From an uncultured virus (IMG/VR IMGVR_UViG_3300021197_001546) (taxonomy: Duplodnaviria > Heunggongvirae > Uroviricota > Caudoviricetes), in the IMG/VR virus record IMGVR_UViG_3300021197_001546: DNA of 64,000 nucleotides; one strand, written 5' to 3'. Shown piece after piece: positions 13,642 through 47,908 of this stretch. How positions within the stretch are numbered: the first letter of the stretch is position 1; every line of letters starts with the position of its first letter. A program made the position numbers and the translations under genes. The notes beneath the pieces were generated by a model that saw nothing but the letters and a program-made list of their open reading frames with translations, did no database searches and was not told the origin of the DNA.

Positions 13642-16140
13642 ATGCCACTAAATCAAACAAATTATGTAGAAAGCCGCGGAGAACTTTTCCCCTACAATTC
13701 TGAGTATGGGGGTCAACGTCGAGTTCGATCAAATTATCTTTTTCGATCGGCGGATAATAAAGAAGTTAAGGTCGATGGAGTCAATATCACTTTCACAAAT
13801 GCAGTGACACTAGATTCCAATTCACAAACCATTCAAAATTCTTGGCCCATAGAAATTGGCGGTAATGTGCCGACCACACTCAATGGTGGTGATAACATTT
13901 GGAGTGTTACTCATTTTAGGGATTCGAATCTGTTAACTATCATCATAAAAGGTGATAAGGTGGTGAATGGAGATTATACGCTCGACCAACAGGAAGAAGA
14001 CAAAGAAATTTATGATGCATATAAAGCAGATCTAGAAAATATTCTAAGCGATACTTCTACCTCTGGTGATGGACTAATAGAAAACTTTTTTGGTTTCAAT
14101 TGGGGAAGTATAAACGGGAATGATGCAACGGATGTCGTTAGCGAAGCAATTGAAGTAACAACGGGTCCATCAGAGTCGGCGGCCTCTGGCGCTTCTCGCC
14201 GAGAATTTCGAGTTACTATCGAACTCGAAAACAATCAGCAATTTGATTTTTATGGCGCACAAGATAATTGGGTAGTACTGTCTAATGACAGCGGTACTGA
14301 TGGTGATGGAATCATTGAATGGAAGCCCACATTAACTACCAATACAGTAATAGGAAATCTTCTTTCGTGTACATCTGCTATACGACTTAATCCACCAGAG
14401 TATATCGAAGTGATGGATAATGTCGGATCGGTCTCTCTGGGGAAATATCTAGTAAAAGACACTGAAAACGACGACTTCATTTTAATGACCGAGCGTCGTG
14501 ACGGTCAAGATTTCCCTTCCGGAACATTCTCCAACTGCAAAATTTCAAGTATCAATCTACAACCAAGATTACGAGTTAAATATAAATTACCAGATCCGAG
14601 CGATCCAACACCAGATCCACCGCAAGAAACCGAAACTTACAGGTTCTATTCGCAGCCCTCGGGTACCGGATATAAAAATTTGGCCACAAATTCTTCTATC
14701 GACGCAAACCAAAAGATTGAAATAGACGGTCCCCCAGACCCCTCGGCTGTCCCTAATAATACCACTTTCCTCGACGGAAGGGACGCGGACGCCACGTCTG
14801 ATCCTCCTACCACCCCTATCACCGAGATATTTGGCGTTGGTGCATCTCGTACTATCAACGGCCTCAATTTTGGTGGAAACTTACCTTTCGGTGTAAAAAC
14901 ACAAACCGAAGATCTTTCCTCGGCGGGCGGACCTGTAAGATCAAGAAAAACCCCGTGGAGAAAAGGTTACAGAGCAATCAATAGGTTTACACCAAAAGAA
15001 GCCACGATAAGAAAGGTTCAAACGAGTTCTGGCGTGGATGGTTACATGAGAGCAAATCTGACCCTTAGTGTCGCACAATCGAATCAAGACAATCTGAGCA
15101 TAAATACCCCCGAAGCGATTCTACACAAACCAATATTGTGTCAATGGGATAGCACGGTCAGCGGAAGTCACGGCAAAAATCAAATATGTTTTGGTGCAAC
15201 ACCATTCAAGAATTCCGATGGTACGGAGATCCTAGACCTTCTATCGAGTGCGGACAGTTTTGGCGGAGCGAACACCCCATCCGCAAAATTCTTCATGAGA
15301 AGTGGACCGGCCCACACTCTCGAACGAGAAGATCATATCGGGAATTCGACGAACGGTTATGTTCTAGAGTCGAGCAATCCTAATACCATAACATTCTTTG
15401 CAGACATGGCGGATGCGGACACCAGATCGCTCGGAACTCGACCCCCATACGATTTCACAGGTAAGGTCTCTACCAGATACGGTGTAATTCCAGCGTACTC
15501 AGGAGAAATATTAGCAGCCGATAATGACATGGGCAATCAAGAGACACCCGATTTTGGATTCATAGAATTCAACTACACCAACACTACTGATTTGTCATTG
15601 ATTGATAAATTTGCTGTCTTTATTGACATCAGTGAAACTGACGAGGTCTTACGATGGAACGGACTAAACTATGACCCACTTGAGATGTGGAAAGGAACTT
15701 TTGCCTCACTGAAAGTTACGAACGTAACCAAGGGTACAAGTGTTTCTATTCCCAATACCAATTGTGTTATGAAGAAAGATAGTAAAACCAACTATGTTGT
15801 AGTTATGCACACGGACATGGGTAATGCTAGTGGTTTTGTAATCGATACAGACGATAAAATCACGGTAGAATTTTTGAATAAGAAAGTATTGAGAGACTTC
15901 GATACTAATGCTATTCCTAGCGATCCTACCACCGTATATGTGCCTATTGAGTATCGTCCATTAGAAAAGGAAGGTATGGACGATATCTTCTTCACCAAGG
16001 CCGAATCCCGACTATCAGACTTCACAATCTCTAGTGATGGTACGGTAGACGGAAACATCACCATCAATTACGACGGTGATGTTCCAGACGGTACACAATT
16101 CAGATTGTTCATCGAAGAGGACGAAGAAGGATCTCCGTGA
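13642..16140 (+). CDS. Large acidic hypothetical protein, probably structural
   Basis: 832-aa ORF immediately after the previous gene; D/N/T/G-rich. Confidence 0.6.
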   Translation: MPLNQTNYVESRGELFPYNSEYGGQRRVRSNYLFRSADNKEVKVDGVNITFTNAVTLDSNSQTIQNSWPIEIGGNVPTTLNGGDNIWSVTHFRDSNLLTIIIKGDKVVNGDYTLDQQEEDKEIYDAYKADLENILSDTSTSGDGLIENFFGFNWGSINGNDATDVVSEAIEVTTGPSESAASGASRREFRVTIELENNQQFDFYGAQDNWVVLSNDSGTDGDGIIEWKPTLTTNTVIGNLLSCTSAIRLNPPEYIEVMDNVGSVSLGKYLVKDTENDDFILMTERRDGQDFPSGTFSNCKISSINLQPRLRVKYKLPDPSDPTPDPPQETETYRFYSQPSGTGYKNLATNSSIDANQKIEIDGPPDPSAVPNNTTFLDGRDADATSDPPTTPITEIFGVGASRTINGLNFGGNLPFGVKTQTEDLSSAGGPVRSRKTPWRKGYRAINRFTPKEATIRKVQTSSGVDGYMRANLTLSVAQSNQDNLSINTPEAILHKPILCQWDSTVSGSHGKNQICFGATPFKNSDGTEILDLLSSADSFGGANTPSAKFFMRSGPAHTLEREDHIGNSTNGYVLESSNPNTITFFADMADADTRSLGTRPPYDFTGKVSTRYGVIPAYSGEILAADNDMGNQETPDFGFIEFNYTNTTDLSLIDKFAVFIDISETDEVLRWNGLNYDPLEMWKGTFASLKVTNVTKGTSVSIPNTNCVMKKDSKTNYVVVMHTDMGNASGFVIDTDDKITVEFLNKKVLRDFDTNAIPSDPTTVYVPIEYRPLEKEGMDDIFFTKAESRLSDFTISSDGTVDGNITINYDGDVPDGTQFRLFIEEDEEGSP

Positions 16141-16163
16141 TCAGTCTTCGTTTCAAGTTTTAA

Positions 16164-16373
16164 TTATCGTGCCCTTGCCCACTCTCGATCAAGTCTCCGA
16201 ACGTTCTCTTTACCCTTTGCGATAAAGAGTTCACTGTCGCACTTGTGACTGTAGATAACTCGAGCAATGATAGGCGTAGAATTCTTATCTACACACTTGA
16301 CACAATACTCGGTATCGGGGATTGCTTCGAGACGGGCGGGGGCGATTGGATTTTCACATTCCAAGCAGATCAT
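16164..16373 (-). CDS. DksA/TraR C4-type zinc finger protein
   Basis: CLECENPIAPARLEAIPDTEYCVKC. Confidence 0.85.
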   Translation of the reverse strand: MICLECENPIAPARLEAIPDTEYCVKCVDKNSTPIIARVIYSHKCDSELFIAKGKENVRRLDREWARAR

Positions 16374-16549
16374 AATATTCTCTAGGGCAGGGGCCGTGGT
16401 CGGCCCCAGTCCTGATACCTTCCAGATAGGTTCGTTAAATAATGCGGATTACGTTTTAGTCGTTTTAGGTATAGTCTACGACGGCGAGAAAGCAGGAGTC
16501 GTTTGAGCATTTAGGTATCTCTTTTGGTTTAAAGGGATCACCTTATATA

Positions 16550-16777
16550 TCATTTGCTCATCCGATCACGGTACTGTTTTGGGTTTTCCCAGAGGCGAAC
16601 ATTGCCCATAAGATCTCTCTTGCACTTCCAGATCATACCACACATTGCGAATAAAGCAAGCGACATTCCGTATTCAATCGGAATAATTTTTGCCACCATT
16701 AAGATACCAAGAAAGGCATTCATCGTGCTCATAATCAGGAGCATTGTCATGGCATATTCTTGTTCACGCATTGTCAT
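16550..16777 (-). CDS. Small membrane protein
   Basis: Two hydrophobic segments; overlaps the upstream ORF. Confidence 0.6.
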   Translation of the reverse strand: MTMREQEYAMTMLLIMSTMNAFLGILMVAKIIPIEYGMSLALFAMCGMIWKCKRDLMGNVRLWENPKQYRDRMSK

Positions 16778-16979
16778 TGATCCTATCCAAGAGTAGGTTC
16801 CACTTCATCAGTTCGGTTTCGTGTTCGGTGATTTTCATATCCACAATCTGACGCAAACGAACACTATCGTACGAATAAGCACCACCTAAGCCACCTTCGT
16901 TCTTGATAAAAACGATATCACGATCGGGGTGATTATGAATCTGATATGGTCCAGTAAAGTCATGAATTTCATCTTTCAT
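16764..16979 (-). CDS. Hypothetical protein
   Basis: Part of an ATGA-coupled ORF chain. Confidence 0.6.
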   Translation of the reverse strand: MKDEIHDFTGPYQIHNHPDRDIVFIKNEGGLGGAYSYDSVRLRQIVDMKITEHETELMKWNLLLDRINDNA

Positions 16980-17236
16980 GATCCTACCTTCCTTACCTTG
17001 TTGTCGCTACGAGAAAGCATCCACATCACACCGTTTTCATCTTCCCAGACCCAGTAAACGGGTTGAGTTGGATCTTCGATACGAACCAGCCACAGTTGAG
17101 TAGTTGCTTGCTGGATCTCTTGATTCTCTTCGAGTTCCTTCTTGGTATCATCCCAACGAAAGAAAAAGGTCATCGAAACCAAAAGAGAAATCAGTGAAAC
17201 GACCACTAGAAGTTCTAGTGTGCTGAATCCTCTCAT
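16976..17236 (-). CDS. Prepilin-type N-terminal cleavage/methylation domain protein
   Basis: MRG-FSTLELLVVVSLISLLVSM matches a class III signal (G-1, F+1, E+5, hydrophobic helix); ATGA-coupled on both sides. Confidence 0.8.
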   Translation of the reverse strand: MRGFSTLELLVVVSLISLLVSMTFFFRWDDTKKELEENQEIQQATTQLWLVRIEDPTQPVYWVWEDENGVMWMLSRSDNKVRKVGS

Positions 17237-17526
17237 TTGTGCCACCTTCGGTATTCTTCGTTTGCGGCAGCAGCCTCATCTTTCGCATACCATTCGCTAT
17301 AGATGATCACTGCTTCTTCGCTATGGGGGTAGTCAGACGTTGCCTCACGCTCTACGATGTTCTGTCCGTTCTCGGACACCCATGCATCGAACTCGTCCGT
17401 CCAGCGACACTGATCGTCTCTACCGATGATCTTACCAGTGATGAAGCAGATGTCCTCAGCACTGATCCAGTCTTCAACAATCTTAGGCAGAACCTTCTTC
17501 ATAGTCTTTTCATTCATACGAGCCAC
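17233..17526 (-). CDS. Hypothetical protein
   Basis: Coupled ORF in an early operon. Confidence 0.6.
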   Translation of the reverse strand: MARMNEKTMKKVLPKIVEDWISAEDICFITGKIIGRDDQCRWTDEFDAWVSENGQNIVEREATSDYPHSEEAVIIYSEWYAKDEAAAANEEYRRWHK

Positions 17527-17702
17527 TTTCCTCTCTTGATAACTCTGGTTTCCAGAATTTCCTGTCCACGCTTGTGCATGTTTCGTTGCTTGGTGATGCC
17601 TTTTCCGTAAGCGGTTTCAGGAATACCACGATGTTCACGAATGGCAGAACCTTCGCGTTCTGCCTCCAAATCAAACTGATCAATATGTCGCTTCTTGTTC
17701 AT
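17514..17702 (-). CDS. Small hypothetical protein, probably leaderless
   Basis: ATG lies 6 nt after a -10 box. Confidence 0.6.
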   Translation of the reverse strand: MNKKRHIDQFDLEAEREGSAIREHRGIPETAYGKGITKQRNMHKRGQEILETRVIKRGKWLV

Positions 17703-17708
17703 GACTAT

Positions 17709-17736
17709 AGTCTATCATAGATTCTAGACTTGTCAA
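17709..17736 (-). promoter_or_regulatory. Sigma70-like promoter
   Basis: TTGACA-N16-TAGACT with a TG extension. Confidence 0.65.
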
Positions 17737-17972
17737 ATGGTAAGGAGAGAGATTGTCGTTTCCTCGTTCTGCCTAATCTTCACGATCAAAGTGCCTTTTG
17801 TGATTAGGCTCTTTGTGAGGCTCTCTCCTTGACGTATATTGAGTCCCTGAGTGTCCCGTAGAGCGTCTGTGTCGTCCTCGTAGTGAACAACCACCCTTCG
17901 CTCCTCCGTGTCCTCTAGGAGCGTCCTGAGAGGGATCTGAGGAGTCGTATGGACGACGATACGGTTACTCAT
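17733..17972 (-). CDS. Hypothetical protein
   Basis: ATGA-coupled to the upstream beta-sandwich gene. Confidence 0.55.
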   Translation of the reverse strand: MSNRIVVHTTPQIPLRTLLEDTEERRVVVHYEDDTDALRDTQGLNIRQGESLTKSLITKGTLIVKIRQNEETTISLLTI

Positions 17973-18421
17973 CGCGTGACATCAGGAGACACACGGAAGC
18001 GTCCCTCGATGATCCTCGTAACGGTTCCAGAGGAGTCTGTGAGTTCGAGATCGTAGTGGTGCTGCCCTTCTGGGACGTTCTTCATGGTAGCAGAATCTGC
18101 CTGAATAAAAATGCCTCCTGTAGCACCTTCTGTGACTCCGACCGAAGAGGCATTCAAAAAGATGCCTCCTGTTCCTGCCGTCCCCGCAAAAGTGGCACCT
18201 GCCACATACTCACCAGTCGAGCCTCCACCTGTCACTCCGCGTTCTCCAGTATTACCTTGGAGATGTAGAATGATCTTGGAGGTCTTGGTGGATCTACGAA
18301 CCTGCATGTCAGCAGTATAGCCACTCAGGTTGATACCCGTGGTTCCTGCTGTTTGATATTCAAGAAACAACTTGAACGTTGCTCCACGATCTATATCTAA
18401 ATTATGTCGTGCTGCTGGCAT
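17969..18421 (-). CDS. Virion beta-sandwich (BppU/LtfC-like adaptor) protein
   Basis: NLDIDRGATF...INLSGYTADMQVR...YDLELTDSSGTVTRIIEGRFRVSPDVTR. Confidence 0.7.
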   Translation of the reverse strand: MPAARHNLDIDRGATFKLFLEYQTAGTTGINLSGYTADMQVRRSTKTSKIILHLQGNTGERGVTGGGSTGEYVAGATFAGTAGTGGIFLNASSVGVTEGATGGIFIQADSATMKNVPEGQHHYDLELTDSSGTVTRIIEGRFRVSPDVTR

Positions 18422-18430
18422 GTGATTCTC

Positions 18431-18649
18431 CTAAAGTCCTAAGACAATTCTAATTCTTGACCAAAGACCTGGCATATCTTCTGGATTTTTTTCTGCCCTC
18501 TTAGCAGCCCTGCTTACTTCAGCATCAGTTAAAAGAATCCACTTTGCAACCCCGTCCACTCTAATGCGAGTTGGCCAGTAATGGTTTGCTTCCGTGGAAT
18601 ACTTTTTGTCTTTGTTTGTGCTTCTGCTATTCATAGTAGTGTTCTCCAC
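18431..18649 (-). CDS. Hypothetical protein
   Basis: LLTDAEVSRAAKRAEKNPED; TAAATA late-type box at 18653-18658. Confidence 0.6.
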   Translation of the reverse strand: MENTTMNSRSTNKDKKYSTEANHYWPTRIRVDGVAKWILLTDAEVSRAAKRAEKNPEDMPGLWSRIRIVLGL

Positions 18650-18664
18650 TACTATTTAGGAAAA

Positions 18665-18750
18665 TACGGTCGGTGGGACTCGAACCCACAAGAGGTTTTA
18701 CCCTCGTCGGATTTTAAGTCCGATGCGTATGCCAATTCCGCCACGACCGC
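18665..18750 (-). tRNA. tRNA-Leu(UAA)
   Basis: Cloverleaf GCGGTCG...CT-TAA-AA, long variable arm, GTTCGAGT; no encoded CCA. Confidence 0.93.
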
Positions 18751-18902
18751 AACTTATTCAACGAATCTTCTTACCGTTTCCAGACCGAGAAGTTCGTGAT
18801 GCTGCATTTCCCTTTCGGGAGGGCTTCGCCTTCTTGGAGCCCTTCATCATGTTGTTAACGTGCTTAGACTGCTGTGAATTCATCTTTGCCATCGTGTTCC
18901 TT

Positions 18903-19268
18903 TCATAGAAGTTCAATACCTGAATTGGTAGTATAGTAGATTCTGTCGAAGAGTGCAATAGACCAAGGTAAACAAAATCTACAAGGTTTACTCATTCTCA
19001 TGTCACCGAATCTATTGTATCTAAAATTGAGAAGTGCTAAATTATCTTTCGGTCCTTTGTAACGAAGAAGTGCATCCAATTCGGAATGCACTTCATCGAA
19101 TCTATAACCATACTTCTTTGCCATCGGGTGCGTGCGAAAGTGGTTCGTGCCAACCGACACGATCTCGTTCTTTCGAACGATAATCGAAACATGCTTCTTC
19201 GGTCTCGGGATCTCTAGAGACACAGGAAGAGCGACATCTTTCACTTTATTAATGGTTCTAAGATTCAT
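18903..19268 (-). CDS. Cytidine/deoxycytidylate deaminase-like zinc protein
   Basis: HSELDAL (HxE) and SKPCRFC (PCxxC). Confidence 0.8.
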   Translation of the reverse strand: MNLRTINKVKDVALPVSLEIPRPKKHVSIIVRKNEIVSVGTNHFRTHPMAKKYGYRFDEVHSELDALLRYKGPKDNLALLNFRYNRFGDMRMSKPCRFCLPWSIALFDRIYYTTNSGIELL

Positions 19269-19416
19269 GATTAAAAAGTACCCTGCGTTATTACAGACAA
19301 ATGCGCAGCCCTCGTGTTCTTTATAGTGCAGATCGGATCGTTCATGCTAACTCTTGCCATACGAGATTCGCAAGTATACGGCACACTACCTAAGAGCGAC
19401 TTAGGATTTTCAACAA

Positions 19417-19489
19417 CTCCACGGGCTGGACTCGAACCAGCAACCTTGCGGTTAACAGCCGCACGCACTACCAATTGTGCTACCGTGGA
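19417..19489 (-). tRNA. tRNA-Asn(GUU)
   Basis: TCCACGG...GCGGCT-GTT-AACCGC...GTTCGAGT...CCGTGGAG. Confidence 0.93.
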
Positions 19490-19509
19490 AACACTGCCCT
19501 CCGAAGGAA

Positions 19510-19583
19510 CACGGGCGGCAGGACTCGAACCTGCGACCTGCGGATTAGAAGTCCGCTGCTCTATCCAACTGAGCCACGCCCGC
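19510..19583 (-). tRNA. tRNA-Arg(UCU)
   Basis: GCGGGCG TGGCTCAGTTGGATAGAGC...CT-TCT-AA...GTTCGAGT. Confidence 0.93.
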
Positions 19584-19589
19584 TTATGT

Positions 19590-19895
19590 CTACTCGGTTA
19601 GAGTAAGTGCTGGCCCGCTCACGGTTCCCTTGGGAGGAACAACGAGACCGCTACCGAACGCCGTGTTATACTCATTCATGAGTTCATCGTGGGGCTTGAT
19701 ACTGAAGAGAATGAAGTTCTTCGAGATCGTAATAGGCCCATCATGATCCGCATAGGGGAGCCACGGAGCAAGTCCAATACTCTGATTTCCCGTAGGAAGA
19801 ATCAGACAGGGTTTTTCAATCTTGAATTCGGTTTCCTCTTCAGTCACCGTTGCGAGAATCTCTTCGCCGCTTGTCAGTCGTAGAATCTTTACCAT
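19590..19895 (-). CDS. Conserved T4-like small Sm/LSm-like protein
   Basis: KILRLTSGEEILA...GLAPWLPY...YNTAFGSGLVVP. Confidence 0.7.
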   Translation of the reverse strand: MVKILRLTSGEEILATVTEEETEFKIEKPCLILPTGNQSIGLAPWLPYADHDGPITISKNFILFSIKPHDELMNEYNTAFGSGLVVPPKGTVSGPALTLTE

Positions 19896-20007
19896 TGGTT
19901 TTCTTTCCTTTTTTCTTTCCGAAAATTGCTTCGTAGTTCTTGGAATACGCTTCCCGATCTACTTTCCTATATTTATCACCTTTACCCGCACCGTGTTGTC
20001 CACCCAT
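19840..20007 (-). CDS. Small basic hypothetical protein
   Basis: GAGGAG RBS, ATG 20007, GAGKGDKYRKVDREAYSKNYEAIFGK. Confidence 0.6.
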   Translation of the reverse strand: MGGQHGAGKGDKYRKVDREAYSKNYEAIFGKKKGKKTNGKDSTTDKRRRDSRNGD

Positions 20008-20088
20008 ATTCAGTCTCCTCAAAAGAAAACCGCCGGCGAGTTCCAAGCAGCCGAAACCGTGGTCGCCCGCCGGCGGTGTTGATTTAAT

Positions 20089-20279
20089 GGGACTCAGGGT
20101 TATTGTATACCTGAAGAAAGCAGCACGAACGTACAATGTCAGTAGTAACCTGCTTCCACCACTCCACACATCCCGCTAAGGATCATCTCATACAAGCATT
20201 TCTGCATCATACGGACAGGTCGCTAAACCATTTGGAGTTTGCACTATCCCCATTCGTAGAGGATTATTATGCGAGTCCC
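20089..20279 (-). ncRNA. Candidate ~190-nt multi-helix structured RNA
   Basis: GGGACUC/GAGUCCC closing helix with several internal stems; own promoter upstream and a hairpin plus U-run downstream. Confidence 0.6.
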
Positions 20280-20335
20280 GTGTGGGAGGTAATTAGTCTC
20301 CCGCACATTATTTCTTATTCACTTGTCATACGAGT

Positions 20336-20363
20336 ATTATACTCGTAGTGGTGGGTTTGTCAA
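20336..20363 (-). promoter_or_regulatory. Sigma70-like promoter
   Basis: TTGACA-N16-TATAAT. Confidence 0.8.
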
Positions 20364-20385
20364 CCCTGTTCTCAAACTTTTTTTC

Positions 20386-20547
20386 TCACTCCTTCCGCCA
20401 CGGACAAGAAGGTCCGATCAGCAGAAGAGTAGGAACCCAAAGACCGATGAAGGTTCCGAGAGTTGCATCCGTCTGGTAAACCCAGATAGAAAGAAGAATT
20501 GAAATGAACGCCAAAATGTAAAGAATCTTTCCGAATACCTTAAGCAT
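20386..20547 (-). CDS. Small two-TM membrane protein (53 aa)
   Basis: MLKVFGKILYILAFISILLSIWVY...GTFIGLWVPTLLLIG; AGGAG RBS. Confidence 0.65.
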   Translation of the reverse strand: MLKVFGKILYILAFISILLSIWVYQTDATLGTFIGLWVPTLLLIGPSCPWRKE

Positions 20548-20550
20548 GTT

Positions 20551-21150
20551 CTACTCCTTGTTCCAAAGAACATTCAATGTCTTATCATAAACCATGAGGA
20601 AGCGATGCTTCCTACTTCTATCGCGCCACTCTCCGTCGAGTCCGCTCATCTTACCTCTACTATGCTTGACGAATGATCCGTCTTCCTGTTTGATCCAGAA
20701 GTCTTTCTTCGGCGCCGTCATTCCATAGTAATCAAAATTTGCTGCTCTATAAATGGTTCCTTCGTGGTAGTCGGCGTCTGCGTAACTCAGGACCGCTCTA
20801 ACCATAGTTGTCTGTCGCAACCTTCGCAGACATCTCGAAACGAACCATGTCGCCATATTTTTTTCACTTCGTTGGATGGAGGGGTGCAGACACAACCTGC
20901 TAAGTTCAAAAAGCCCGTCCTGTTGATCACGTTGTAATCCGAAGGCTGACTGGGCCAATTCGGGAACTGGTAGTCCCGTGAAAATACATACCCCAAGACT
21001 TCCTTCTGATGAGATTGGTTCGTCTTTGAAGAGTCCATAATTGTATCCAGACTTGAAACCTTTGGAGTGATCCTTGAGATAGTGATACTGAAGGAGCAAG
21101 CCCTCCGCATCTTTCTTACCGATCGGATCAATAGTGAAATCACTTTTCAT
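20551..21150 (-). CDS. Mom-like (GNAT-fold) DNA modification protein
   Basis: YHYL...ELSRLCL...WFVSRCLR...VLSYAD...HEGTIYRAANFDYYG. Confidence 0.8.
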   Translation of the reverse strand: MKSDFTIDPIGKKDAEGLLLQYHYLKDHSKGFKSGYNYGLFKDEPISSEGSLGVCIFTGLPVPELAQSAFGLQRDQQDGLFELSRLCLHPSIQRSEKNMATWFVSRCLRRLRQTTMVRAVLSYADADYHEGTIYRAANFDYYGMTAPKKDFWIKQEDGSFVKHSRGKMSGLDGEWRDRSRKHRFLMVYDKTLNVLWNKE

Positions 21151-21152
21151 AA

Positions 21153-21225
21153 AGCGGGTGAACGGACTCGAACCGTCAACATTTAGATTGGAAATCTAAC
21201 ACTCTACCAATTGAGTTACACCCGC
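21153..21225 (-). tRNA. tRNA-Gly(UCC)
   Basis: GCGGGTGTAACTCAATTGGTAGAGT...TT-TCC-AA...GTTCGAGT...CACCCGCT. Confidence 0.93.
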
Positions 21226-21284
21226 ATAAAGAGGGAGCCAGGTGCCCCTCCGACACCTGGCTCCCGTACTACTCGTTCTGAATA

Positions 21285-21554
21285 TCAGAGAGAGTAGCGG
21301 TTACCTTCGGCGTCGTAACCGTAGGTTCGACTGCCAGGATGGGTATCCTCCATGAAGTAACGGGTCATGCCCGTAGCGGTGGACTGGCTGGTGATTTCCC
21401 AGTTACCGAACGCCTCGACCTGCGAACGAATGTCGCTGATGGTGGCTCGAAGGTTACCGACACCGAAGCGGCTCTTGGCTTCGTTCGGAGTGAGTCCCTT
21501 GCCGCTGGCGAGGTAGTTGATGACACGGCGCTTCTTGGTGAGAGTGTTGTTCAT
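21285..21554 (-). CDS. Small helix-turn-helix protein
   Basis: VINYLASGKGLTPNEAKSRFGVGNLRATISDIR. Confidence 0.75.
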   Translation of the reverse strand: MNNTLTKKRRVINYLASGKGLTPNEAKSRFGVGNLRATISDIRSQVEAFGNWEITSQSTATGMTRYFMEDTHPGSRTYGYDAEGNRYSL

Positions 21555-21636
21555 AACACAATGCTCCAGTTGTGGATGCTTGTTTAAGGTTAAGAGTCTT
21601 GGAATCGCATCCGTGTTCCTTGACTCGACTTCGTAT

Positions 21637-21664
21637 ATTATACAGTGGTTGAACGGTTTGTCAA
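21637..21664 (-). promoter_or_regulatory. Sigma70-like promoter
   Basis: TTGACA-N16-TATAAT. Confidence 0.8.
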
Positions 21665-21838
21665 CCCTTTGGGGTAGTTTTTCGCAATAAAGTTCATCAC
21701 GATTTGCTTCGCGTACTGTTCTGCCGAAACATTATTCTCGGCGGCAATGTCGATAAGAACATTGATGTGTTCTTGTGGCAGTTGCATGGTGACGGGAAAA
21801 TTCATGAGTTCAGATTTCTCAATTTGAGTGTTTTCCAT
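21638..21838 (-). CDS. Small hypothetical protein (possibly ribbon-helix-helix)
   Basis: VTMQLPQEHINVLIDIAAENNVSAEQYAKQIV. Confidence 0.5.
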   Translation of the reverse strand: MENTQIEKSELMNFPVTMQLPQEHINVLIDIAAENNVSAEQYAKQIVMNFIAKNYPKGLTNRSTTV

Positions 21839-21840
21839 AA

Positions 21841-21913
21841 TGGCTCCGCTGGGACTCGAACCCAGAACGTTCGGCTTAAAAGGCCGCTACTCTACCAATT
21901 GAGTTACAGAGCC
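21841..21913 (-). tRNA. tRNA-Lys(UUU)
   Basis: GGCTCTGTAACTCAATTGGTAGAGT...CT-TTT-AA...GTTCGAGT. Confidence 0.93.
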
Positions 21914-22166: not shown

Positions 22167-22739
22167 TCAGGAAATTCCCGAAGAAAACCAATCAGGCATT
22201 TGTGAGGGTTGCTTCCATGTGGCAAAACGACGCTTCTCCATGATGTAGTATCGCCTATAGGCAACAATAGAGGCACGAATAGAATTGCCTGGTACTTTGC
22301 AGTGATCAGGCATAGCCTGTGGAAAGGCAGTCTGTCTGTGGTCCTCTGGAATCCCCGATGGGGGATAGCACTGACACCACTCAATGAGGGACTGGGATCC
22401 GTGTCTGCGTCCGTAGCGTCTCGTATACTCGTCACAGAGAGCGAGACCGTGGTCTGCGAGCCAGCGGTAGTTCCCCAGCGTCTCCCGCGCCCAGATGGTG
22501 CAGGGGTGGTTCATCATAGTAGCACGATAAAGCAGAGTGTTGTCAGCCTCATCAGTCGGATGCGACCATCGCTGAATACGCCTGCCATTCTTCGAGTAAT
22601 CAATGTAGGGATCTCCATCGAGCATACGGTGAACCGTCGAGAGCATTTGTGCCGTCTCGACAGGCATTTTGACGACATGCTTGTCGCACATCTCACGGGC
22701 AGATTGAAAAGGTGAATCGTGAAGGGCAAAGATGTTCAT
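22167..22739 (-). CDS. Pyrimidine-dimer DNA glycosylase (DenV-like)
   Basis: MNIFAL...CDKHVVKMPVETAQMLST...NHPCTIWARE...EYTRRYGRRH...PQAMPD. Confidence 0.85.
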   Translation of the reverse strand: MNIFALHDSPFQSAREMCDKHVVKMPVETAQMLSTVHRMLDGDPYIDYSKNGRRIQRWSHPTDEADNTLLYRATMMNHPCTIWARETLGNYRWLADHGLALCDEYTRRYGRRHGSQSLIEWCQCYPPSGIPEDHRQTAFPQAMPDHCKVPGNSIRASIVAYRRYYIMEKRRFATWKQPSQMPDWFSSGIS

Positions 22740-23104
22740 TTCGGAAGTGGTGCCTCATAGAAGACTTTGATGTTTAGTGCCTTTGCAAGTGCCAACTCCG
22801 CATTGGCACCTTTGCTCTTTTCCCAACCAGACATCATATAGATCGCTGTGCAATCGTCACAGATCGCAACCATGTCTCGCTTGAGAGCAGCACGCATGAA
22901 TTCGTGATCCTCGTAGCAGTTGTCGGGATCAAACTCGTATGATGGTGATGTGGGTTTGCCTTGATCACGGTCAAGTTCTGCTGGATTGATTACATGCCAA
23001 CCCTGCTCCAGAAGCACACGGGCGCATCGGTCGAAGGCAGGGTAGTTGTAGTTCTCGAACCCACGCATGGGTCCAGCAACATAAATTGTTGGTTCTCGTT
23101 CCAT
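22736..23104 (-). CDS. Nucleoside 2-deoxyribosyltransferase-like (DUF4406-type) protein
   Basis: IYVAGPMRG..NYNYPAF...INPAE...AIYMMSGWEKSKGANAE. Confidence 0.85.
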   Translation of the reverse strand: MEREPTIYVAGPMRGFENYNYPAFDRCARVLLEQGWHVINPAELDRDQGKPTSPSYEFDPDNCYEDHEFMRAALKRDMVAICDDCTAIYMMSGWEKSKGANAELALAKALNIKVFYEAPLPK

Positions 23105-27964: not shown

Positions 27965-28387
27965 TCAATCGATTTTCAGATTACCGAGAACCTTTTCCCA
28001 ATAGGATTGTGTAGCCTTCTTGCGATAACCGTTCGGCCCGCCGTTGTGAATACGAGCGATATCCTCCATCGTAGCCGTACGTCCCAGTCGTCGCTCAATC
28101 GCGTACCGATCCATATAGGCATTCACGATCTTCTCGGAATACTCACGGTTGAAACAGTCTTCGTACTTCCCACCAATGCTCTTATCGAATTGTACTGCAT
28201 CCTTCCAATAGGAACGCCAAATCTGATACGGACCGATGGCGTTTCCGTTGTCACCCACCGCAGAGTCATTATTACCCGACTCGACGATGCGAATTGCATC
28301 CATGAGTCGGCGAGGAACCTCCGCATTAGCGAGAGTCGAACAAAGAATACCAACGGCGAGAAGCGAGAGAGAAGTCTTCATGTTCAT
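27965..28387 (-). CDS. i-type (destabilase-like) lysozyme with a Sec signal peptide
   Basis: MKTSLSLLAVGILCSTLANA signal; AIRIVESG...GPYQIWRSYWKDA...ARIHNGGPNG...YWEKV. Confidence 0.85.
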   Translation of the reverse strand: MNMKTSLSLLAVGILCSTLANAEVPRRLMDAIRIVESGNNDSAVGDNGNAIGPYQIWRSYWKDAVQFDKSIGGKYEDCFNREYSEKIVNAYMDRYAIERRLGRTATMEDIARIHNGGPNGYRKKATQSYWEKVLGNLKID

Positions 28388-42600: not shown

Positions 42601-43307
42601 ACGTATGGGAGGTTGAAGGAACTACGTCTATATTAAACAGAGACGAAATCAAAAGAATTTTCGAAGAAAAAGACCGTCTATGGTTTGAAAAATACCCAGT
42701 AGAGGCCGGCCTAACAGAACCTCTAAAGCAACGAAATTCCGCAGCGGGACCGTACTACCCATGTGATTTGTTTGCTGACAGCAGCAGTGGCGGCGGTGGT
42801 GGTGGATCAACAACTCTGCCAGGCGAATATGTGTGGACGGACAGTCAGAGTTCATGGAACGGAACACCTCTCCTTGAAGACGGAACAGATTCTCCTGGCG
42901 AGTTCTGGGACTCGATGGTCCCCGGGAAGTTTTGGTCCAGAGAAGCAGGAGCATCAGGCCGAGGTCTCGTCCTTCCGTTCAGCGATTCCACGTCGAAGGA
43001 TCAATATCTATCCTATGTAAACGATGATGAAGGTAATCAAATCCGAAAAGTAAAAATTCACTTTGATATTGTCAATCCACCAGAAACTTCTGTTTACATT
43101 GCAGGGGAACGAGTAACAATAATTTGGCCCGACGATGCTTCAACCTACGGCTTAGGTTCGATTAGACGAGCGACCGATACTTCTGTTATACATGATCGAG
43201 TTAGCAGCGGGCAGGACCTCTGGCCATTCAGCGGGGATTCTGGTGATCCAGAGTGGCCAGGAGAAAAAGTAATTGTTAGCATGGAATGGGAAGAAATAAC
43301 ACCATGA
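39633..43307 (+). CDS. Large late protein with a putative right-handed beta-helix
   Basis: THGQGFSAYKNSY...QHNIFYDC...LDNNLF...SRNTL rung pattern; TAAATA at 39602. Confidence 0.65.
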   Translation: MAEFSTSNDSPFNVTDDMSRVTAKIKITKPGETSIERSATVFAPVDSEYEDLRNFHNEIDEVILTLSRDTSVDPIWDEPGAMSESEYPVIDFEGRKFARTYADWIQAQDDVLNGIDPVAPWGSNKPSLGYPRFGPCRMKIKNATVRGGVLMNQGWESVPDPNDSGTNIWRTDADVNWISDSRITMIDDDIPESDPVASIYPFFVDTGDSEVNNIIQKFRYNYSEAHWIRIDKQSEGESYGRIHTKFGDEAPFGIDPVVRGWKLYDTHGFTNGIEVPFGQNADGNDVTETMYGVRFYDELIEENGGDAAEPFLLQAAGFISDGIVGEFPVTDSPSGETIDEHRLKPAFIFRKSDRCDYTDYHVQTDTRGREPTYEKFIEVYKDGFIYTQMVHTSKSSSLNSVKADPVSNPLKVIKESETHVMVSFENLPESNFSDGVEYVPYPRQRDYLKGKSMTTTLAGTYFSRPTILGFTVSDPDRRQLIEDALGADDFTYNVETGEGRKETIISHADANVVGSAVIVEYSRNKIWSDGNIYGDYVKIDNTLNDYGKSFFRFEDDPTTPEDEYDPDITTSGGMQYNGYYEFLFVGPNKIPLEEGEFRFDITDKKLYYRPKHGNTPNKVIISMGRVTVARVTDNSDFILENCNLALGSFAIVNAGGAHARCQFRNCYARNAGNLQHGGVVYFDDSIAENMVFRGLAVTDGSKIRRSMILNAQNQSGCLLQCLDDNDPIRESEIRDSFFYMGATTHGQGFSAYKNSYLKCAIQHNIFYDCKRSHSAQPGSQANANAERGTYLLDNNLFWLDRLIFPASAGQKHISHQTGDGEQDISSHPPSPADPEPNVVEYGDQVEQMIISRNTLLYNTKWITDPTLVNGENYGQDLPNFFGLGIDRNVNSRVWLSNTISPFFNVPNTFTIVDERENDADFPLGWNGGIDAAGCWIQDDTKYNVGGSTGTSLIENWVDTFPVDEVLPHDTSTSGEAIATDGGRSGIRWQNVWEVEGTTSILNRDEIKRIFEEKDRLWFEKYPVEAGLTEPLKQRNSAAGPYYPCDLFADSSSGGGGGGSTTLPGEYVWTDSQSSWNGTPLLEDGTDSPGEFWDSMVPGKFWSREAGASGRGLVLPFSDSTSKDQYLSYVNDDEGNQIRKVKIHFDIVNPPETSVYIAGERVTIIWPDDASTYGLGSIRRATDTSVIHDRVSSGQDLWPFSGDSGDPEWPGEKVIVSMEWEEITP

Positions 43308-46300
43308 ACTATAAAGATATAACAGGCGCACCAAACGCTTCACAACTCAATCTCTCCAACTTCAGTGACCAGATCCCTGTCGGATCTAGCATTCGGTGTA
43401 TTGTTACTGCTGAAGGACTATTAGCAGATCGTACACCAGAAACTATAGAAGTAAACACCAACGCTGTTCTTGTGACCGAACCATCGGGGCCAGGTGCGGA
43501 TCCTCCGCCCACGATCGAAAGTCTTTCTCTTACTTCGTGGGAAGTCGGATCACCTGTAACTGGAACGGCAATAATTGATTATGTTGGTGGAACCTCCTTG
43601 CAAGACTTATTGGATGATGGTTGGAGTGTCAATTGGGAGTGGTCATTTGAAAATTTTGAAGGTGACGACGGAGAGTCAACCGATGCAAACATCGATGGGA
43701 TCTGGAAAATTGAGCCTGGAGATATGCCATTCCGTGACGATGAACATGGTATTGAATACTCATTCCAAGATTATGCTAATGTAGACCGTGGTATTTTTAA
43801 TGATCATGTTCCAGATATACTATTCAAGCCCAAGAATGCACAAGAAGTAATCAGGATCTTGAATTATTGTGATGCAGAGTCGAAAGAATTTAGAGTAAGA
43901 TCAGGAACTCACAGTTACAACGGCGAAGGAACTGGTGATGGTGTTGTAATCATTGACATGAGACTGATCGATACCGTTACGGTAGACACCACGAATGAAT
44001 GGATGGATGTTGGTGGTGGTGCTACTCTTTGGCAGACGAACGCCGCACTTGATTATGAACCTGCTGATCCGACCGCGAGTTCGTCCTACGGAGAAACTGA
44101 CACACAAGAATATAATAATGTGCGTCAATCGACTGGATATTGGACACCATCAGGATCATGCCCCCATGTTGGGTTTTCTAGTGTGGCATCAGGAGGAGGA
44201 ATTTCTGGTTATCCCAATAGAGTAGGACTCATGTGTGATTTAATCCTAGAAATTGACATCGTAATACCAAAAAGCGGCGGTGGTTATCAAGAGGTTACCG
44301 CAACCGCAACGAACCAGTATAGCGATTTGTTGGACGGTATCCGTGGACTTGGCAATTCTTCACTTGGAATTATCACACGAATTAGAAGTAAAATATTAGA
44401 ACGAAGAAATACCCACTTCATGAGAGTTGGTCTATCGTGGAGATACGGACAGCATTTCAATGCGGATGATGAAAATTTGTGGGCCATTCATAATCTCAAT
44501 AATGAACCTGATTTCTGGGAAAATGCACACGAGACCGATGAATGGAAATTTGGTAAGGCTGTTTATACCTCATACCAAGATCTATTGATGGGAAACGAGA
44601 CCTGGCCCGATGATCATCCCGAAGCGAGTTTACGGGGAGAAGAAATATGGCCTCACGGTGAAACAAACGGTATCGATGGTACGTTTTATATGTGGGCGAA
44701 TCATAGTAATCCCGGTGTTGGTTGGGATTATTCTATCACTTACCATATTCAACTAGATTGCTTTGACGGCGATCATGGAACAGTGCCTGATCCTAATAAT
44801 TCTGCGACTCCAGTACCCGCACACATGTACTATCTCGCAAATGAAATTGTGGAGAGAGCGATTGCAAAACAAACTGGGGATGAGTTTGAAAGATTCCGAG
44901 AAGGAACAGAGAGGGGGACCCCTACTAATGCTATAAGATATCAATATGTGACCGGTCCTGAGACACAAGGGATCTCTGACTGGATGAATCCTGTTACGAA
45001 CGATGTAATAAAACAAACGAATGGTAGTGCTGGGGAGGCATGGTCCACGAACGGGGCATTAACAATACCGAATAACTCACCCAACGACGAAGCGGTGGCA
45101 GAAGCGACGTTCCAGTTTTATAGAGATATTATAACCGATATCAATCCACTAGCGAACCCAACGGGATCAGGCAAAGAAGGTATATACTATAGATTCTATA
45201 CTCACTCTTCTTGTCCTAATGGTCCTGTTGCAGATCCTCAGATTCATACGCATGATCTGGCCAAAGATGTTCTTGGATGGAGAGATCGTCCAAATGAAAT
45301 ACAATTATATGAAGCGTACCCTGGCTCTCAAGAGGCGCAGTTCTGGGATAAAACCACCCACGAACTAACTGATCTAGGTAAACAATTCCAGCAAAGAAGA
45401 GTACAGTATTTCAATGAGATGATTTCATTGTACGGCGGCGACGATCCGAGATCATATATTGGTTACATAGACAGTATGGTCAACCATTATACTCTTCCTA
45501 ATGGAAATCCAATTGATGTTAATAAATTCTACTATGGTGATGGTGGGGTTACTAATTTAACTACACTGAAAGACAAGTACGATCCTTCGGATAAATTTCC
45601 AACGGGACCAGTAATGAAAACAATTGATATCGGTGAACTACCGAGTTCCTCTATGGCGAGATTAGAAGATGGTGGTGTAGATCCGAAGGATTGGGCTCCA
45701 TTCGCATTATCAGGTTTGGTTTACGATGCCTCCGAGCCTTTCAACTATCCCGTTTCTGGTAGATTTATAACACCACCGTATTTTGCACATGATGACGATG
45801 ATCACAAGTATATTAGTATAGTTGCGCCTCCGTATCAGGGGGTAATAGATGATGGTAGTGGCACACTGAGATATAATAAACTTGATAGAATTGAATTTTA
45901 CTTGAATGGTGACATCAGTAAGGTAATAGTCACCGAACCCGAGAGTGTAACCAGAGGGTATGACTGCTATACCGTAGAACACCCTTTCGATTTAACGACC
46001 TCTGATACAATGAAAAAAACAAATGAAGTGCGAGCCATCATTTATTATGAAAAGGGCGAACCAAGAATACTTCAGGGTATGGTGGAACCAAATGTAGACA
46101 TCAATCCCCTCGATGGAGATGGAATCCCGATCGCCGAACTCGTTGGAGTTCAAGATCCAAAAGCCATTACGATGTCTGCCGATTTCTCATGGAACAACAG
46201 AGGATGTTTCATAGGAAAATATGAGGATTATTATGTTGGTCCCCTTGGCAACGACGGTAATGATGGAAAATTAAGTCCGGTGCTGACTCCTTCTGAGGCG

Positions 46301-47908
46301 TATGCAAAAGCATATGCGAACGGTCATACGAACATAAGAGTAAACAATTCACATGTATGCACTATTGGAGACGAACTAGGACCAAACGCAGATCTAACGG
46401 GACCAGCGGCTGCATATACTGGATATGATCTAACTCAATTCTTTAAAGAGGGTCGAGGACTGGACTACAACGGCACGTCGGGGACTCCGGTAGGAGGAGA
46501 TCCCAGTGACTTCGTTCACCGAGAAACCCTACCTGCTATAGTTCAAGGCGGTGAGATGTGGGTGAACAACCTTGCCGCGACCATCACATTCGCACATGGT
46601 GCATTATTCAAGAACTGTAATATGATATTGAATGCAAGTGTAGGGTCAACTAATAAGGGATATACTTATTTTCTTAGAAATAAAAATAAGGGGGATAGGT
46701 TCAGAAGATGGACTGACTACTGTGCCGTCATGTTCGATGGTTGCACTATTGGACCAAAAGAGAAAACCGATAGTAAGGGTGGAGGCTTCGGATCAATAGA
46801 AGATCATTCATACAGGGACACTGTTGGAGGATATTCATTGACTCTTTCTGATAATGGTTCTTATTACACGGGAAACAACGCAGCGTATAATTGTACCATA
46901 AATTACGGAGTCGGGAACTCAGGACAAGAGATGGTAGATTGTGATATGATCTGTCCACCAACTCAAAATGATATTGTTAACTATACAATGATCGTAAATA
47001 CAAACATCTATGATGTCAACAAGCACTACTATCCGTGGGGTTCTCTGGGAAGTCCAGACGGTGCTGGTGCTGGAGAAGAATCGGTCGAATTTGGCGTACC
47101 TATTTCTAAGGATAGAGCAGATAATCTGGGCCTGCATAATACCTTATCATACAGTGAGACCTACTCAAACACACAAACATCTATAGCGGAACGAATCCCA
47201 TACACTAACAATCCTACAGAATTCAACTCAGTACATTTACCCTACGATAAGGGATTTTGGCCAGACTATACAATGGCAGGCATAAAGGGGGTGGACCGAC
47301 TAGATGGGTCCCCCGCGACACTGAACCAGACAAATATCAATATGTCCGGGATAAGTAGATATGATACAGCAGATCCACTTTCACCTTGGTATGGTAAAAA
47401 ATTCAATGACAATCCAAGAGATCCTCACTTTGATGTGCAACAATTCAATGAAGTACGGAAAAATGTAATCGTTCACCGAATGAAAGTAGAATCAGCCAGA
47501 GGAAATTTCCAAGGAATATTCACCGCAGACGAGGCACGTATCGAGTCGGGTGCTTTTTGGAATATAACATGGAATGCCCCCGGTAATCAAGGACAGTCGA
47601 TGATGCTTATTGGCTCGACGGACGAAAATAACAACAACCCATCGATTCCGACAGGACAGTTCATACACTACGGGCCTGATATTTTTGCGTTCGAGGGCAC
47701 CAATGTATTCCTCCCCAGAGATGTCATGAGCAATGGTACCAACGACAACAAGGATGTTTGGATTTATGATAAGAATCTGGATGGAGACTGGACCAGTATT
47801 AGAGAATGGAATGATAGTTTGACTACAGGAGCAGTTCATGAAGTATCCAGATCGGCACCACTAACAGGTCTACGCTATACGCAAGTCAAGATACCAGACA
47901 TAGATTAA
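43304..47908 (+). CDS. Giant late protein: Ig-like N-terminus, FAD-linked BBE/AA7-like oxidase domain, beta-helix-like C-terminus
   Basis: VRSGTHSY, IIDMRLI, VGGGATL, PSGSCPHVG, GLMCDLI, DLLDGIRGLG..LGIIT, YIGYID...YYG...LKDKYDP. ATGA-coupled start at 43304. Confidence 0.8.
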   Translation: MNYKDITGAPNASQLNLSNFSDQIPVGSSIRCIVTAEGLLADRTPETIEVNTNAVLVTEPSGPGADPPPTIESLSLTSWEVGSPVTGTAIIDYVGGTSLQDLLDDGWSVNWEWSFENFEGDDGESTDANIDGIWKIEPGDMPFRDDEHGIEYSFQDYANVDRGIFNDHVPDILFKPKNAQEVIRILNYCDAESKEFRVRSGTHSYNGEGTGDGVVIIDMRLIDTVTVDTTNEWMDVGGGATLWQTNAALDYEPADPTASSSYGETDTQEYNNVRQSTGYWTPSGSCPHVGFSSVASGGGISGYPNRVGLMCDLILEIDIVIPKSGGGYQEVTATATNQYSDLLDGIRGLGNSSLGIITRIRSKILERRNTHFMRVGLSWRYGQHFNADDENLWAIHNLNNEPDFWENAHETDEWKFGKAVYTSYQDLLMGNETWPDDHPEASLRGEEIWPHGETNGIDGTFYMWANHSNPGVGWDYSITYHIQLDCFDGDHGTVPDPNNSATPVPAHMYYLANEIVERAIAKQTGDEFERFREGTERGTPTNAIRYQYVTGPETQGISDWMNPVTNDVIKQTNGSAGEAWSTNGALTIPNNSPNDEAVAEATFQFYRDIITDINPLANPTGSGKEGIYYRFYTHSSCPNGPVADPQIHTHDLAKDVLGWRDRPNEIQLYEAYPGSQEAQFWDKTTHELTDLGKQFQQRRVQYFNEMISLYGGDDPRSYIGYIDSMVNHYTLPNGNPIDVNKFYYGDGGVTNLTTLKDKYDPSDKFPTGPVMKTIDIGELPSSSMARLEDGGVDPKDWAPFALSGLVYDASEPFNYPVSGRFITPPYFAHDDDDHKYISIVAPPYQGVIDDGSGTLRYNKLDRIEFYLNGDISKVIVTEPESVTRGYDCYTVEHPFDLTTSDTMKKTNEVRAIIYYEKGEPRILQGMVEPNVDINPLDGDGIPIAELVGVQDPKAITMSADFSWNNRGCFIGKYEDYYVGPLGNDGNDGKLSPVLTPSEAYAKAYANGHTNIRVNNSHVCTIGDELGPNADLTGPAAAYTGYDLTQFFKEGRGLDYNGTSGTPVGGDPSDFVHRETLPAIVQGGEMWVNNLAATITFAHGALFKNCNMILNASVGSTNKGYTYFLRNKNKGDRFRRWTDYCAVMFDGCTIGPKEKTDSKGGGFGSIEDHSYRDTVGGYSLTLSDNGSYYTGNNAAYNCTINYGVGNSGQEMVDCDMICPPTQNDIVNYTMIVNTNIYDVNKHYYPWGSLGSPDGAGAGEESVEFGVPISKDRADNLGLHNTLSYSETYSNTQTSIAERIPYTNNPTEFNSVHLPYDKGFWPDYTMAGIKGVDRLDGSPATLNQTNINMSGISRYDTADPLSPWYGKKFNDNPRDPHFDVQQFNEVRKNVIVHRMKVESARGNFQGIFTADEARIESGAFWNITWNAPGNQGQSMMLIGSTDENNNNPSIPTGQFIHYGPDIFAFEGTNVFLPRDVMSNGTNDNKDVWIYDKNLDGDWTSIREWNDSLTTGAVHEVSRSAPLTGLRYTQVKIPDID

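Follow-up and report, generated by a model that had tools for sequence, protein, structure and literature searches.

The 64,000-nucleotide stretch of DNA analysed here (hereafter, the window), taken from the uncultured virus record IMGVR_UViG_3300021197_001546 of IMG/VR, encodes a small protein of 86 amino acids (aa) with a conserved N-terminus of the prepilin type. Its open reading frame (ORF), called below the pilin-like ORF, lies on the minus strand (17236..16976), with an ATG at 17236 and a stop codon at 16978-16976, and its product starts with MRGFSTLELLVVVSLISLLVSM. Judged by its gene content, the window belongs to a T4-like myovirus, marine and uncultured. Our preferred reading, which we hold with moderate confidence, is that the protein is a mini-pilin mimic that would engage the prepilin peptidase and the type IV filament machinery of the host and disable or alter the latter.

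The pattern of conservation indicates that the ORF is a real and strongly constrained gene. We collected candidates from the marine assemblies of ENA, JGI, Tara, NCBI and Logan, on contigs of up to 164 kb. All 80 were homologues (E-value, or E, <= 0.01), 60-100% identical and nearly all exactly 86 aa long. Substitution rates were computed for the window and 16 loci, without L014, which duplicates L013, the cut locus L019 and the unrelated L002. The ORF has 86 codons in 17/17 of these sequences and the median ratio of nonsynonymous to synonymous rates (dN/dS) is 0.126 (121 of the 136 pairs had a usable dS), rising to 0.225 over residues 1-27 and falling to 0.088 over residues 28-86. All 13 sequences examined retain the ATG, with a purine-rich stretch 5-12 nucleotides (nt) upstream, whereas an alternative in-frame start three codons upstream (GTG in the window, giving 89 aa) is present in only 8/13. 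Hence, the 86-aa form, with a leader of three residues, is the conserved one. The cassette running from a 62-aa ORF to a dksA gene recurs in 17 IMG/VR loci and in one further locus, L001 (18 loci), and the pilin-like gene is 78-98% identical across loci whose neighbouring genes drop to 39-47%. One could suspect that the ORF arose by chance or is a wrongly called frame, and yields no protein, since it is short, belongs to no PHROG family and lacks matches in cultured phages: a tblastn search of the protein against 50,697 phage records gave nothing, even at E 10. The low dN/dS, the constant length and start codon, the number of homologues and the conserved coupling to the neighbouring genes refute this explanation, whose probability we consider negligible. 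The lack of matches in the phage records indicates instead that the protein belongs to a sequence family separate from the known phage pilin-like proteins.

In agreement with the first-pass annotation of this DNA, which had claimed a prepilin-type signal, the N-terminus carries a conserved class III-like motif. The copy in the window reads M-R-G|F, with Gly at position -1 of the putative cut, and residues F4-F26 are hydrophobic with E8 at +5. A regular expression for such N-termini has one match in the six-frame translation of all 64 kb, the pilin-like ORF itself, and none in 30 mononucleotide shuffles. The N-terminus is intact in 76 of the 80 homologues, while 4 are truncated gene calls. Position -1 is occupied by Gly in 29 of these 76 and by Ala in 47, and by nothing else; position +1 is Phe in 74/76 and Tyr in 2/76; Ser at +2 and Glu at +5 are found in 76/76, the latter also in 7/7 distant relatives. 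The leader has three residues in 69/76. We read the restriction of -1 to the two smallest residues as a sign of a probable contact with the pocket of a peptidase. Beyond the membrane segment, residues R27, W28, D29, D30, K32, K33 and L35 are invariant in alignments of 25 and of 48 sequences.

This combination of features extends to more remote proteins. An exhaustive profile search of 1.84 billion representatives gave 18 hits at E <= 0.001. Seven are genuine distant relatives, namely P0082, P0084, P0085, P0087, P0088 and P0093 (85-119 aa) and P0095 (155 aa). They keep Gly or Ala at -1, Glu at +5 and the motif of the C-terminal head (ATxELWLxRI...W.W.DE.G), and come close to the canonical GF[ST]L[IL]ELL at the N-terminus. 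The Pfam N_methyl threshold is passed by P0087 and P0093, which have 3-residue leaders, and by P0095, which passes that of Pfam GspH too. Matches to giant proteins (P0081, P0089-91 and P0094; 862-5,830 aa) are an artefact, in which about 4.5 bits per repeat are summed over 5-27 repeats of LVIVD, NHL or other types. The head motif L-W-L-x-R-I-E-D-P-x-Q-P does resemble the LVIVD-repeat core L-A-V-I-D-I-S-D-P-x-N-P (P0089, P0090 and P0094 are LVIVD-repeat proteins, and P0081 has 5,830 aa), but a likeness of about 4.5 bits per repeat is too weak for homology. The bacterial loci retrieved by a genome search with P0093 were rejected, being generic pilins caught through MRGFTLLE and not specific relatives; most of the 12 translated loci carry a DPWG motif, which we take to be of the GspG type. 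A search of viral contigs with P0085 found nothing.

Searches with hidden Markov models (HMMs) also relate the family to pilins. All NCBIfam families matched by at least 21 of 48 relatives are pilin or pseudopilin families (PRK10506/PpdA 47/48, GspH 44, ComGE 41, TIGR02532 34), and no similarity to any non-pilin family was found in Pfam, PHROG and NCBIfam. The alpha1-N segment is matched by N_methyl and TIGR02532 and by the N-terminal parts of the GspH, PpdA and ComGD/E models, the highest-scoring models for the window copy being the minor pilin families GspH and PpdA. The copy in L001, which is 84% identical, reaches 24.6 bits against TIGR02532, above the cut-off of 16.3. A profile search of PDB sequences gave only weak hits, of which those open to interpretation were all N-termini of pilins (geopilin, PilA). 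The resemblance to pilins is confined to the N-terminal half. AlphaFold2 predicts a helix at residues 6-54, followed by strands at 61-65, 71-75 and 81-84/85. The predicted local distance difference test score is 72 when only close relatives are used and 82, with a predicted template modelling score of 0.52, when the alignment is broader. The alpha1 helix of pilins has about 53 residues, and the helix predicted here is of the same length.

These elements suggest how the protein could act. It would consist of a basic leader of three residues (M-R-G/A), 23 hydrophobic residues that form the alpha1-N helix with the Glu at +5, an amphipathic stretch that prolongs this helix as far as residue 54 or so, and a head of 32 residues with three strands. 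We infer that the host RNA polymerase would transcribe the gene from a sigma-70-type promoter soon after infection and that the protein, like prepilins, would be inserted in the inner membrane and expose its head to the periplasm. The host prepilin peptidase would recognise it via the small residue at -1. Through its pilin-type alpha1-N/Glu5 interface, it may then enter or jam a type IV pilus, the pseudopilus of a type II secretion system (T2SS) or a competence pilus. The most likely consequence would be the loss or alteration of the pili of the infected cell, which could benefit the phage by excluding pilus-dependent competitors or by shutting down a costly host machine. The review by Berry and Pelicic (PMC4471445) is compatible with some of these steps: it states that a class III signal alone is enough for membrane insertion, and that Glu5 is dispensable for cleavage and needed for the assembly of homopolymers.

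Several observations weigh against this reading, starting with the signal itself. According to the same review, bacterial class III signals have leaders of 6-26 residues that invariably end in a Gly absolutely critical for processing, although length is now taken less strictly and some systems tolerate shortened leaders. The leader of three residues and the Ala at -1 in 47/76 relatives depart from this bacterial rule, a point that the first-pass annotation had missed, and leave the cleavage of the protein in doubt; most members of the family may be cut poorly or not at all. A change from Gly to Ala at -1 of a Pseudomonas pilin is reported to reduce cleavage without abolishing it. The curated models, proposed as a check at first pass, give a divided answer: pilin families are matched, but the window copy stays under both cut-offs (15.7 bits against TIGR02532, with a cut-off of 16.3, and 12.4 bits against Pfam N_methyl, PF07963, with a cut-off of 21.2), and these are reached by about 10/48 and 4/48 relatives, respectively. 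The window encodes no prepilin peptidase or other pilus gene. The origin of the homologues is of little help, the closest relatives coming from marine metagenomes and the core proteins of the phage not pinning a host. T4-like myoviruses usually adsorb to lipopolysaccharides or porins, not to pili, and self-exclusion by depiliation would have no obvious benefit. Finally, there was no pilin among the matches listed by Foldseek against PDB (both models) and by VIA-align wide (first model). What these searches listed for the long helix was coiled coils, the other matches being WW-like sheets of three strands with E > 0.4, and the scores in the ESM Atlas (0.81-0.85) are below the meaningful level. 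Because the long helix dominates the matches, these fold searches are uninformative and do not constitute evidence against a pilin fold.

The ancestry of the head raises a further objection. A comparison by hhalign with P0095 and its ten-member marine GspH/FimT-like family (8/10 members with Pfam GspH, one of them named GspH/FimT pseudopilin of Congregibacter) gave a probability of 95% and E 2.6e-8 over 81 columns. After the N-terminal helix had been trimmed from the two alignments, hhalign found the same register again, but with a probability of 0.7% and E 0.076. The window copy has no match to PF12019 (GspH) at E <= 1, and its match to TIGR01708 (22.9 bits for a cut-off of 80) aligns residues 2-48 only. 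Given the failure of the trimmed control, membership in the GspH/FimT family is not established and the link to GspH is a lead, not a result. In sequence comparisons, the 32-residue head is thus without demonstrated pilin ancestry.

Some of these objections also speak for a rival reading, an uncleaved signal-anchor protein, whose N-terminus would be an anchor derived from a captured pilin gene and whose periplasmic head would act on a target other than a filament. Such a head could block DNA injection or the attack on peptidoglycan, as with T4 Imm and Sp, or sense superinfection, as with the T4 antiholin RI. The prevalent Ala at -1 and the short leader speak against efficient processing (PMC4471445). 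The pilin motif includes neither the most invariant stretch, RWDDTKKEL, nor the Trp-rich head, and dN/dS is lower in these parts than in the motif; no pilin fold is among the matches listed; the head has no significant similarity to GspH after the removal of the helix; and the second gene downstream encodes a probable two-helix membrane protein. However, a plain anchor needs neither a charged Glu at +5 nor a -1 position limited to Gly and Ala, yet both are kept in the 76 intact N-termini and in the seven distant relatives, and the similarities found in Pfam, PHROG and NCBIfam are all to pilin families. We regard the signal anchor as the main rival, a possible but rather unlikely explanation.

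The unusual processing site could also be that of a decoy for the peptidase, i.e. a slow or non-cleavable pseudo-substrate that occupies the enzyme so that the host prepilins of type IV pili, T2SS and competence systems stay unprocessed. This would fit position -1, where the restriction to Gly and Ala implies that the peptidase pocket is contacted but the disfavoured Ala prevails, as well as a minimal leader (judged by the bacterial rule in PMC4471445), and the gene has a strong sigma-70-like promoter ahead of it. But a decoy acting stoichiometrically requires very high expression, and it leaves unexplained both the strongly conserved head and the invariant Glu at +5, dispensable for processing in that source. 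We find it quite improbable. In a bolder reading, the protein would be a minimal "chain-terminator" pilin, made from a leaderless early transcript in widespread and abundant uncultured marine T4-like phages, and would have evolved, with its leader of three residues and its frequent Ala at -1, into a poor substrate still bound by the peptidase and by the assembly platform. We consider this version unlikely. If true, a single protein of 86 residues would simultaneously disable all type IV filament machines of its host cell, whether they serve as pili, in type II secretion or in DNA uptake; it would be a general device for host takeover and competitor exclusion in the ocean, and a natural minimal scaffold for inhibitors of type IV filament machines.

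The idea of a decoy pilin that poisons assembly or excludes competitors, which had been put forward at first pass, is plausible and has a published precedent. Sztanko et al. (Cell Rep 2026, PMC12952977) report that FimU mimics encoded by prophages (P-FimU, in F10-like Pseudomonas phages) are built into pili and block tip-binding phages, and that the overexpression of FimU disrupts pilus assembly. Its Table S3 includes PilA-like genes of virulent phages, which encode truncated PilA proteins of 59-65 aa in Pseudomonas Nankokuvirus phages and proteins of 127-157 aa in phages of Vibrio, Aeromonas (T4-like Biquartavirus) and Synechococcus (ACG-2014f, S-CAM7), with 127-152 aa in the T4-like phages of Aeromonas and Synechococcus. 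For these genes, the authors propose incorporation into pili or a block of assembly as a means of superinfection exclusion. In view of this precedent, the inference of a decoy or of exclusion is the current working model for such genes and not a new idea.

This precedent makes it pertinent to ask if the protein could be a functional replacement pilin like P-FimU, which would be processed and built into a working filament, and would alter the surface bound by phages or add a useful property. Both have a phage-encoded N-terminus of the pilin type, a use, presumed for the protein studied here, of the pilus machinery of the host and a proposed role in phage competition, the best HMMs obtained here belong to the same class of minor pilins (GspH/FimU/FimT/PpdA, with ComGD/E also matched), and the Glu at +5, needed for docking in the filament according to PMC4471445, is invariant. 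In PMC12952977, the P-FimU proteins are described as minor pilins of full size that have additional loops and are made by prophages, and both their incorporation and the protection they confer have been shown. In contrast, the protein studied here is about half this size, is encoded by a T4-like genome of the virulent type, and has Ala or Gly at -1 and a leader of three residues. Its head of about 32 residues is far smaller than any minor pilin of these families, whose models have 139-169 positions, and the link to GspH fails the trimmed control. Furthermore, a virulent phage has a single latent period in which remodelled pili could pay off, and most members of the family have the Ala at -1. 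All in all, a replacement pilin seems improbable to us, and we keep the inhibitory or altering mini-pilin mimic as the preferred reading.

Other known systems differ from the protein in one respect or another. The PilA-like proteins of virulent phages resemble it in being pilin-like products of lytic phages, marine T4-like ones included; according to PMC12952977, their truncated forms are mainly an N-terminal helix and their function is only proposed. The family in the window has a small conserved head and is neither helix-only nor full-size, which appears to set it apart from the proteins of Table S3. The archaeal provirus SNJ2 encodes the pilins PilA1 and PilA2, which the host machinery processes and assembles (PMC12426801). 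As described there, they differ in being archaeal, temperate and full pilins that form dominant functional pili, serve as receptor for another virus and are mutualistic, not inhibitory. The bacterial GspH/FimT/FimU/PpdA proteins (PF12019, TIGR01708, PRK10506) have in common with the pilin-like protein an N-terminus of the class III type and the alpha1 helix, but the phage protein misses their second beta-sheet and has about half their length. T4 Imm and Sp are small membrane or periplasmic proteins of superinfection exclusion, and Tip and Aqs1 are phage inhibitors of the pilus motor PilB. All four are small, made early, and alter the envelope or the pili to the detriment of other phages; they are not known to have a class III signal, and the inhibitors of PilB are cytoplasmic. 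No relationship in sequence or motif is known between Imm, Sp, Tip or Aqs1 and the pilin-like protein. In the literature outside subscription journals, there was no description of this family, nor of pilin-like genes in pelagic T4-like phages beyond those in Table S3 of PMC12952977.

Phage pilin mimicry was shown experimentally only in 2026, in Pseudomonas prophages, and the cases in virulent phages are a short list of database matches. The pilin-like family is a case independent of these, very small and strongly conserved, which comes from uncultured T4-like phages of marine origin and is distinguished by its miniature size, its leader of three residues and its Gly or Ala at -1. The alternation of these two residues, together with the short leader, is a clean natural experiment on what prepilin peptidases need for recognition. 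If the protein blocks type IV filaments, infection by marine phages would also turn off pili, secretion or DNA uptake, with consequences for competition between phages and for gene transfer. Otherwise, it is just a further small membrane protein encoded by a phage.

The gene is part of a set of tightly packed ORFs on the minus strand, in the order 62 aa, 97 aa, pilin-like ORF, 71 aa, 75 aa, 42 aa and DksA/TraR-type zinc finger (Table 1). The translationally coupled operon reported at first pass is borne out: the ORF has ATGA overlaps with both of its neighbours, and a sigma-70-type promoter lies ahead. The five loci in which the junction with the 97-aa ORF is not found are accounted for by contig ends, one rearrangement (L008) and one gap (L009). 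In L008 (IMGVR_UViG_3300025652_000896), the order of the cassette is 62-aa ORF, pilin-like gene, dksA, 75-aa ORF and 97-aa ORF. The pilin-like gene of this locus is still 86% identical despite the rearrangement, and hence does not depend on coupling to the 97-aa ORF. We rejected the idea that the downstream ORF encodes a spanin, as it has neither a signal peptide nor a lipobox.

Table 1. Position of the pilin-like ORF, its parts and the neighbouring features in the window.
Feature	Position	Strand	Remarks
Sigma-70-like promoter, TTGACA-16-TAGACT	17709..17736	minus	TG-extended; 6 nt between the -10 hexamer and the ATG of the 62-aa ORF
First ORF of the operon, 62 aa	17514..17702	minus	Basic
Upstream ORF, 97 aa	17233..17526	minus	Stop overlaps the start of the pilin-like ORF (ATGA); junction in 13/18 related loci
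Pilin-like ORF, 86 aa	16976..17236	minus	80 homologues; median dN/dS 0.126
Leader M-R-G, 3 residues	17228..17236	minus	Putative prepilin-peptidase cut after Gly3, between 17228 and 17227
Hydrophobic alpha1-N segment, F4-F26	17159..17227	minus	Glu8 (mature +5) at 17213-17215
R-W-D-D-T-K-K-E-L block	17132..17158	minus	Directly after the membrane helix; conserved columns
C-terminal Trp-rich head, residues 55-86	16979..17074	minus	Three beta-strands predicted (AlphaFold2)
Downstream ORF, 71 aa	16764..16979	minus	ATGA overlap with the stop of the pilin-like ORF
Hydrophobic ORF, 75 aa	16550..16777	minus	Probable two-helix membrane protein, read from the sequence
DksA/TraR-type C4 zinc-finger protein	16164..16373	minus	PF01258, 32.6 bits; phrog_54; last gene of the conserved cassette; downstream in 17/18 loci

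The promoter is the best sigma-70-like match in 15800-19000 (10/12 positions), a region with 8 such sites against 4.2 +/- 1.9 in shuffles. Four diverged loci (L006, L011, L016 and L019) have the same geometry with another sequence (TTGACA-16-TATAAT, 6 nt and ATG), which supports a functional promoter of the sigma-70 type and hence probably early expression of the operon, a timing that follows from the type of promoter only. Four others (L001, L009, L012 and L013) have a tRNA gene and a Shine-Dalgarno sequence at this position instead. The short distance between promoter and ATG suggests that the first cistron, the 62-aa ORF, is possibly leaderless. DNA nearly identical to that of the window was found in seawater and marine metagenomes of 12 studies. 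One metatranscriptome run has contigs of relatives over 16587-17228 and 17527-17704, the latter being a 178-nt contig whose end at 17704 precedes the ATG of the 62-aa ORF by two bases; contigs in an RNA library prove neither transcription nor ends, and the parts they leave uncovered carry no meaning. Another run, filed under the name of an organism and not as a metagenome, contains about half of the sampled words of 16100-18000, with contigs across the whole stretch, and may be a culture or a host-associated sample with a relative of the phage. Just upstream of the promoter, a Gly-rich ORF of 150 aa (17969-18421, minus strand) matches phrog_1084 (E 1.2e-23) and, more weakly, phrog_3304 ("L-shaped tail fiber protein assembly").

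The suggestion made at first pass that the N-terminus is a clue to a host among Planctomycetota did not hold, since the motif is generic and nothing supports this phylum. The sole Planctomycete-like match of the profile search, P0092, aligns with positions 2-25 of the profile alone; its Planctomycete character is our assumption, made from the pattern of its sequence and not given by a tool. Likewise, only 25 residues were matched in a Chloroflexota locus (L002), which was set aside. The only relative in a cellular bin is L001 (DKPV01000026.1, 6,173 bp), assigned to a metagenome-assembled genome of Flavobacteriales. Its contig consists entirely of the phage small-gene cassette and is either a mis-binned phage fragment or a faint hint at the host. 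This genome, which is incomplete, yielded no prepilin peptidase (PF01478), no other pilin and no gp32, and its only match to TIGR02532 is the phage gene itself.

The classification of the phage is based on the T4-like homologues found in the window, namely gp32, gp33, the gp5 OB domain, gp26, gp48 and gp53. It also encodes a homologue of T4 endonuclease V, a Mom-family protein, a CobS-like AAA ATPase, giant tail-fibre-like ORFs and seven tRNAs, and its GC content is 45%. An identical 86-aa protein is encoded on a contig of 160,713 bp. The core proteins are 36-65% identical to their counterparts in cyanophages, pelagiphages and Methylophilales phages alike. No cultured phage is close: the identity to cultured phages is about 55-65% for gp32, about 37% for gp26 and about 46-59% for the CobS-like ATPase, and a 7.9-kb DNA query (14000-21900) matches cultured phages at tRNA genes only.

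Some other genes of the window deserve mention. The Mom-family protein (PF25680), a pyrimidine-dimer glycosylase of the T4 endonuclease V type and a DUF4406 protein are encoded on the minus strand at 20551-21150, 22167-22739 and 22736-23104, respectively, in a block where tRNA genes (Leu, Asn, Arg, Gly, Lys, Ile and Gln) are interspersed. A 140-aa ORF at 27965-28387 (minus strand) matches Pfam Destabilase (PF05497, 57 bits, E 2.4e-15), which we take to be the family of invertebrate i-type lysozymes and, presumably, an unusual type of lysozyme for a phage. In the array of giant tail-fibre-like ORFs, one of 1,540 aa (43286-47908, plus strand) has a FAD_binding_4 domain at residues 176-255 (PF01565, 51.8 bits), an odd case of an oxidoreductase module in a putative fibre protein. 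Finally, an HNH endonuclease ORF (60137-60694, plus strand; PF14279/PF01844), probably a homing endonuclease, lies between large structural genes.

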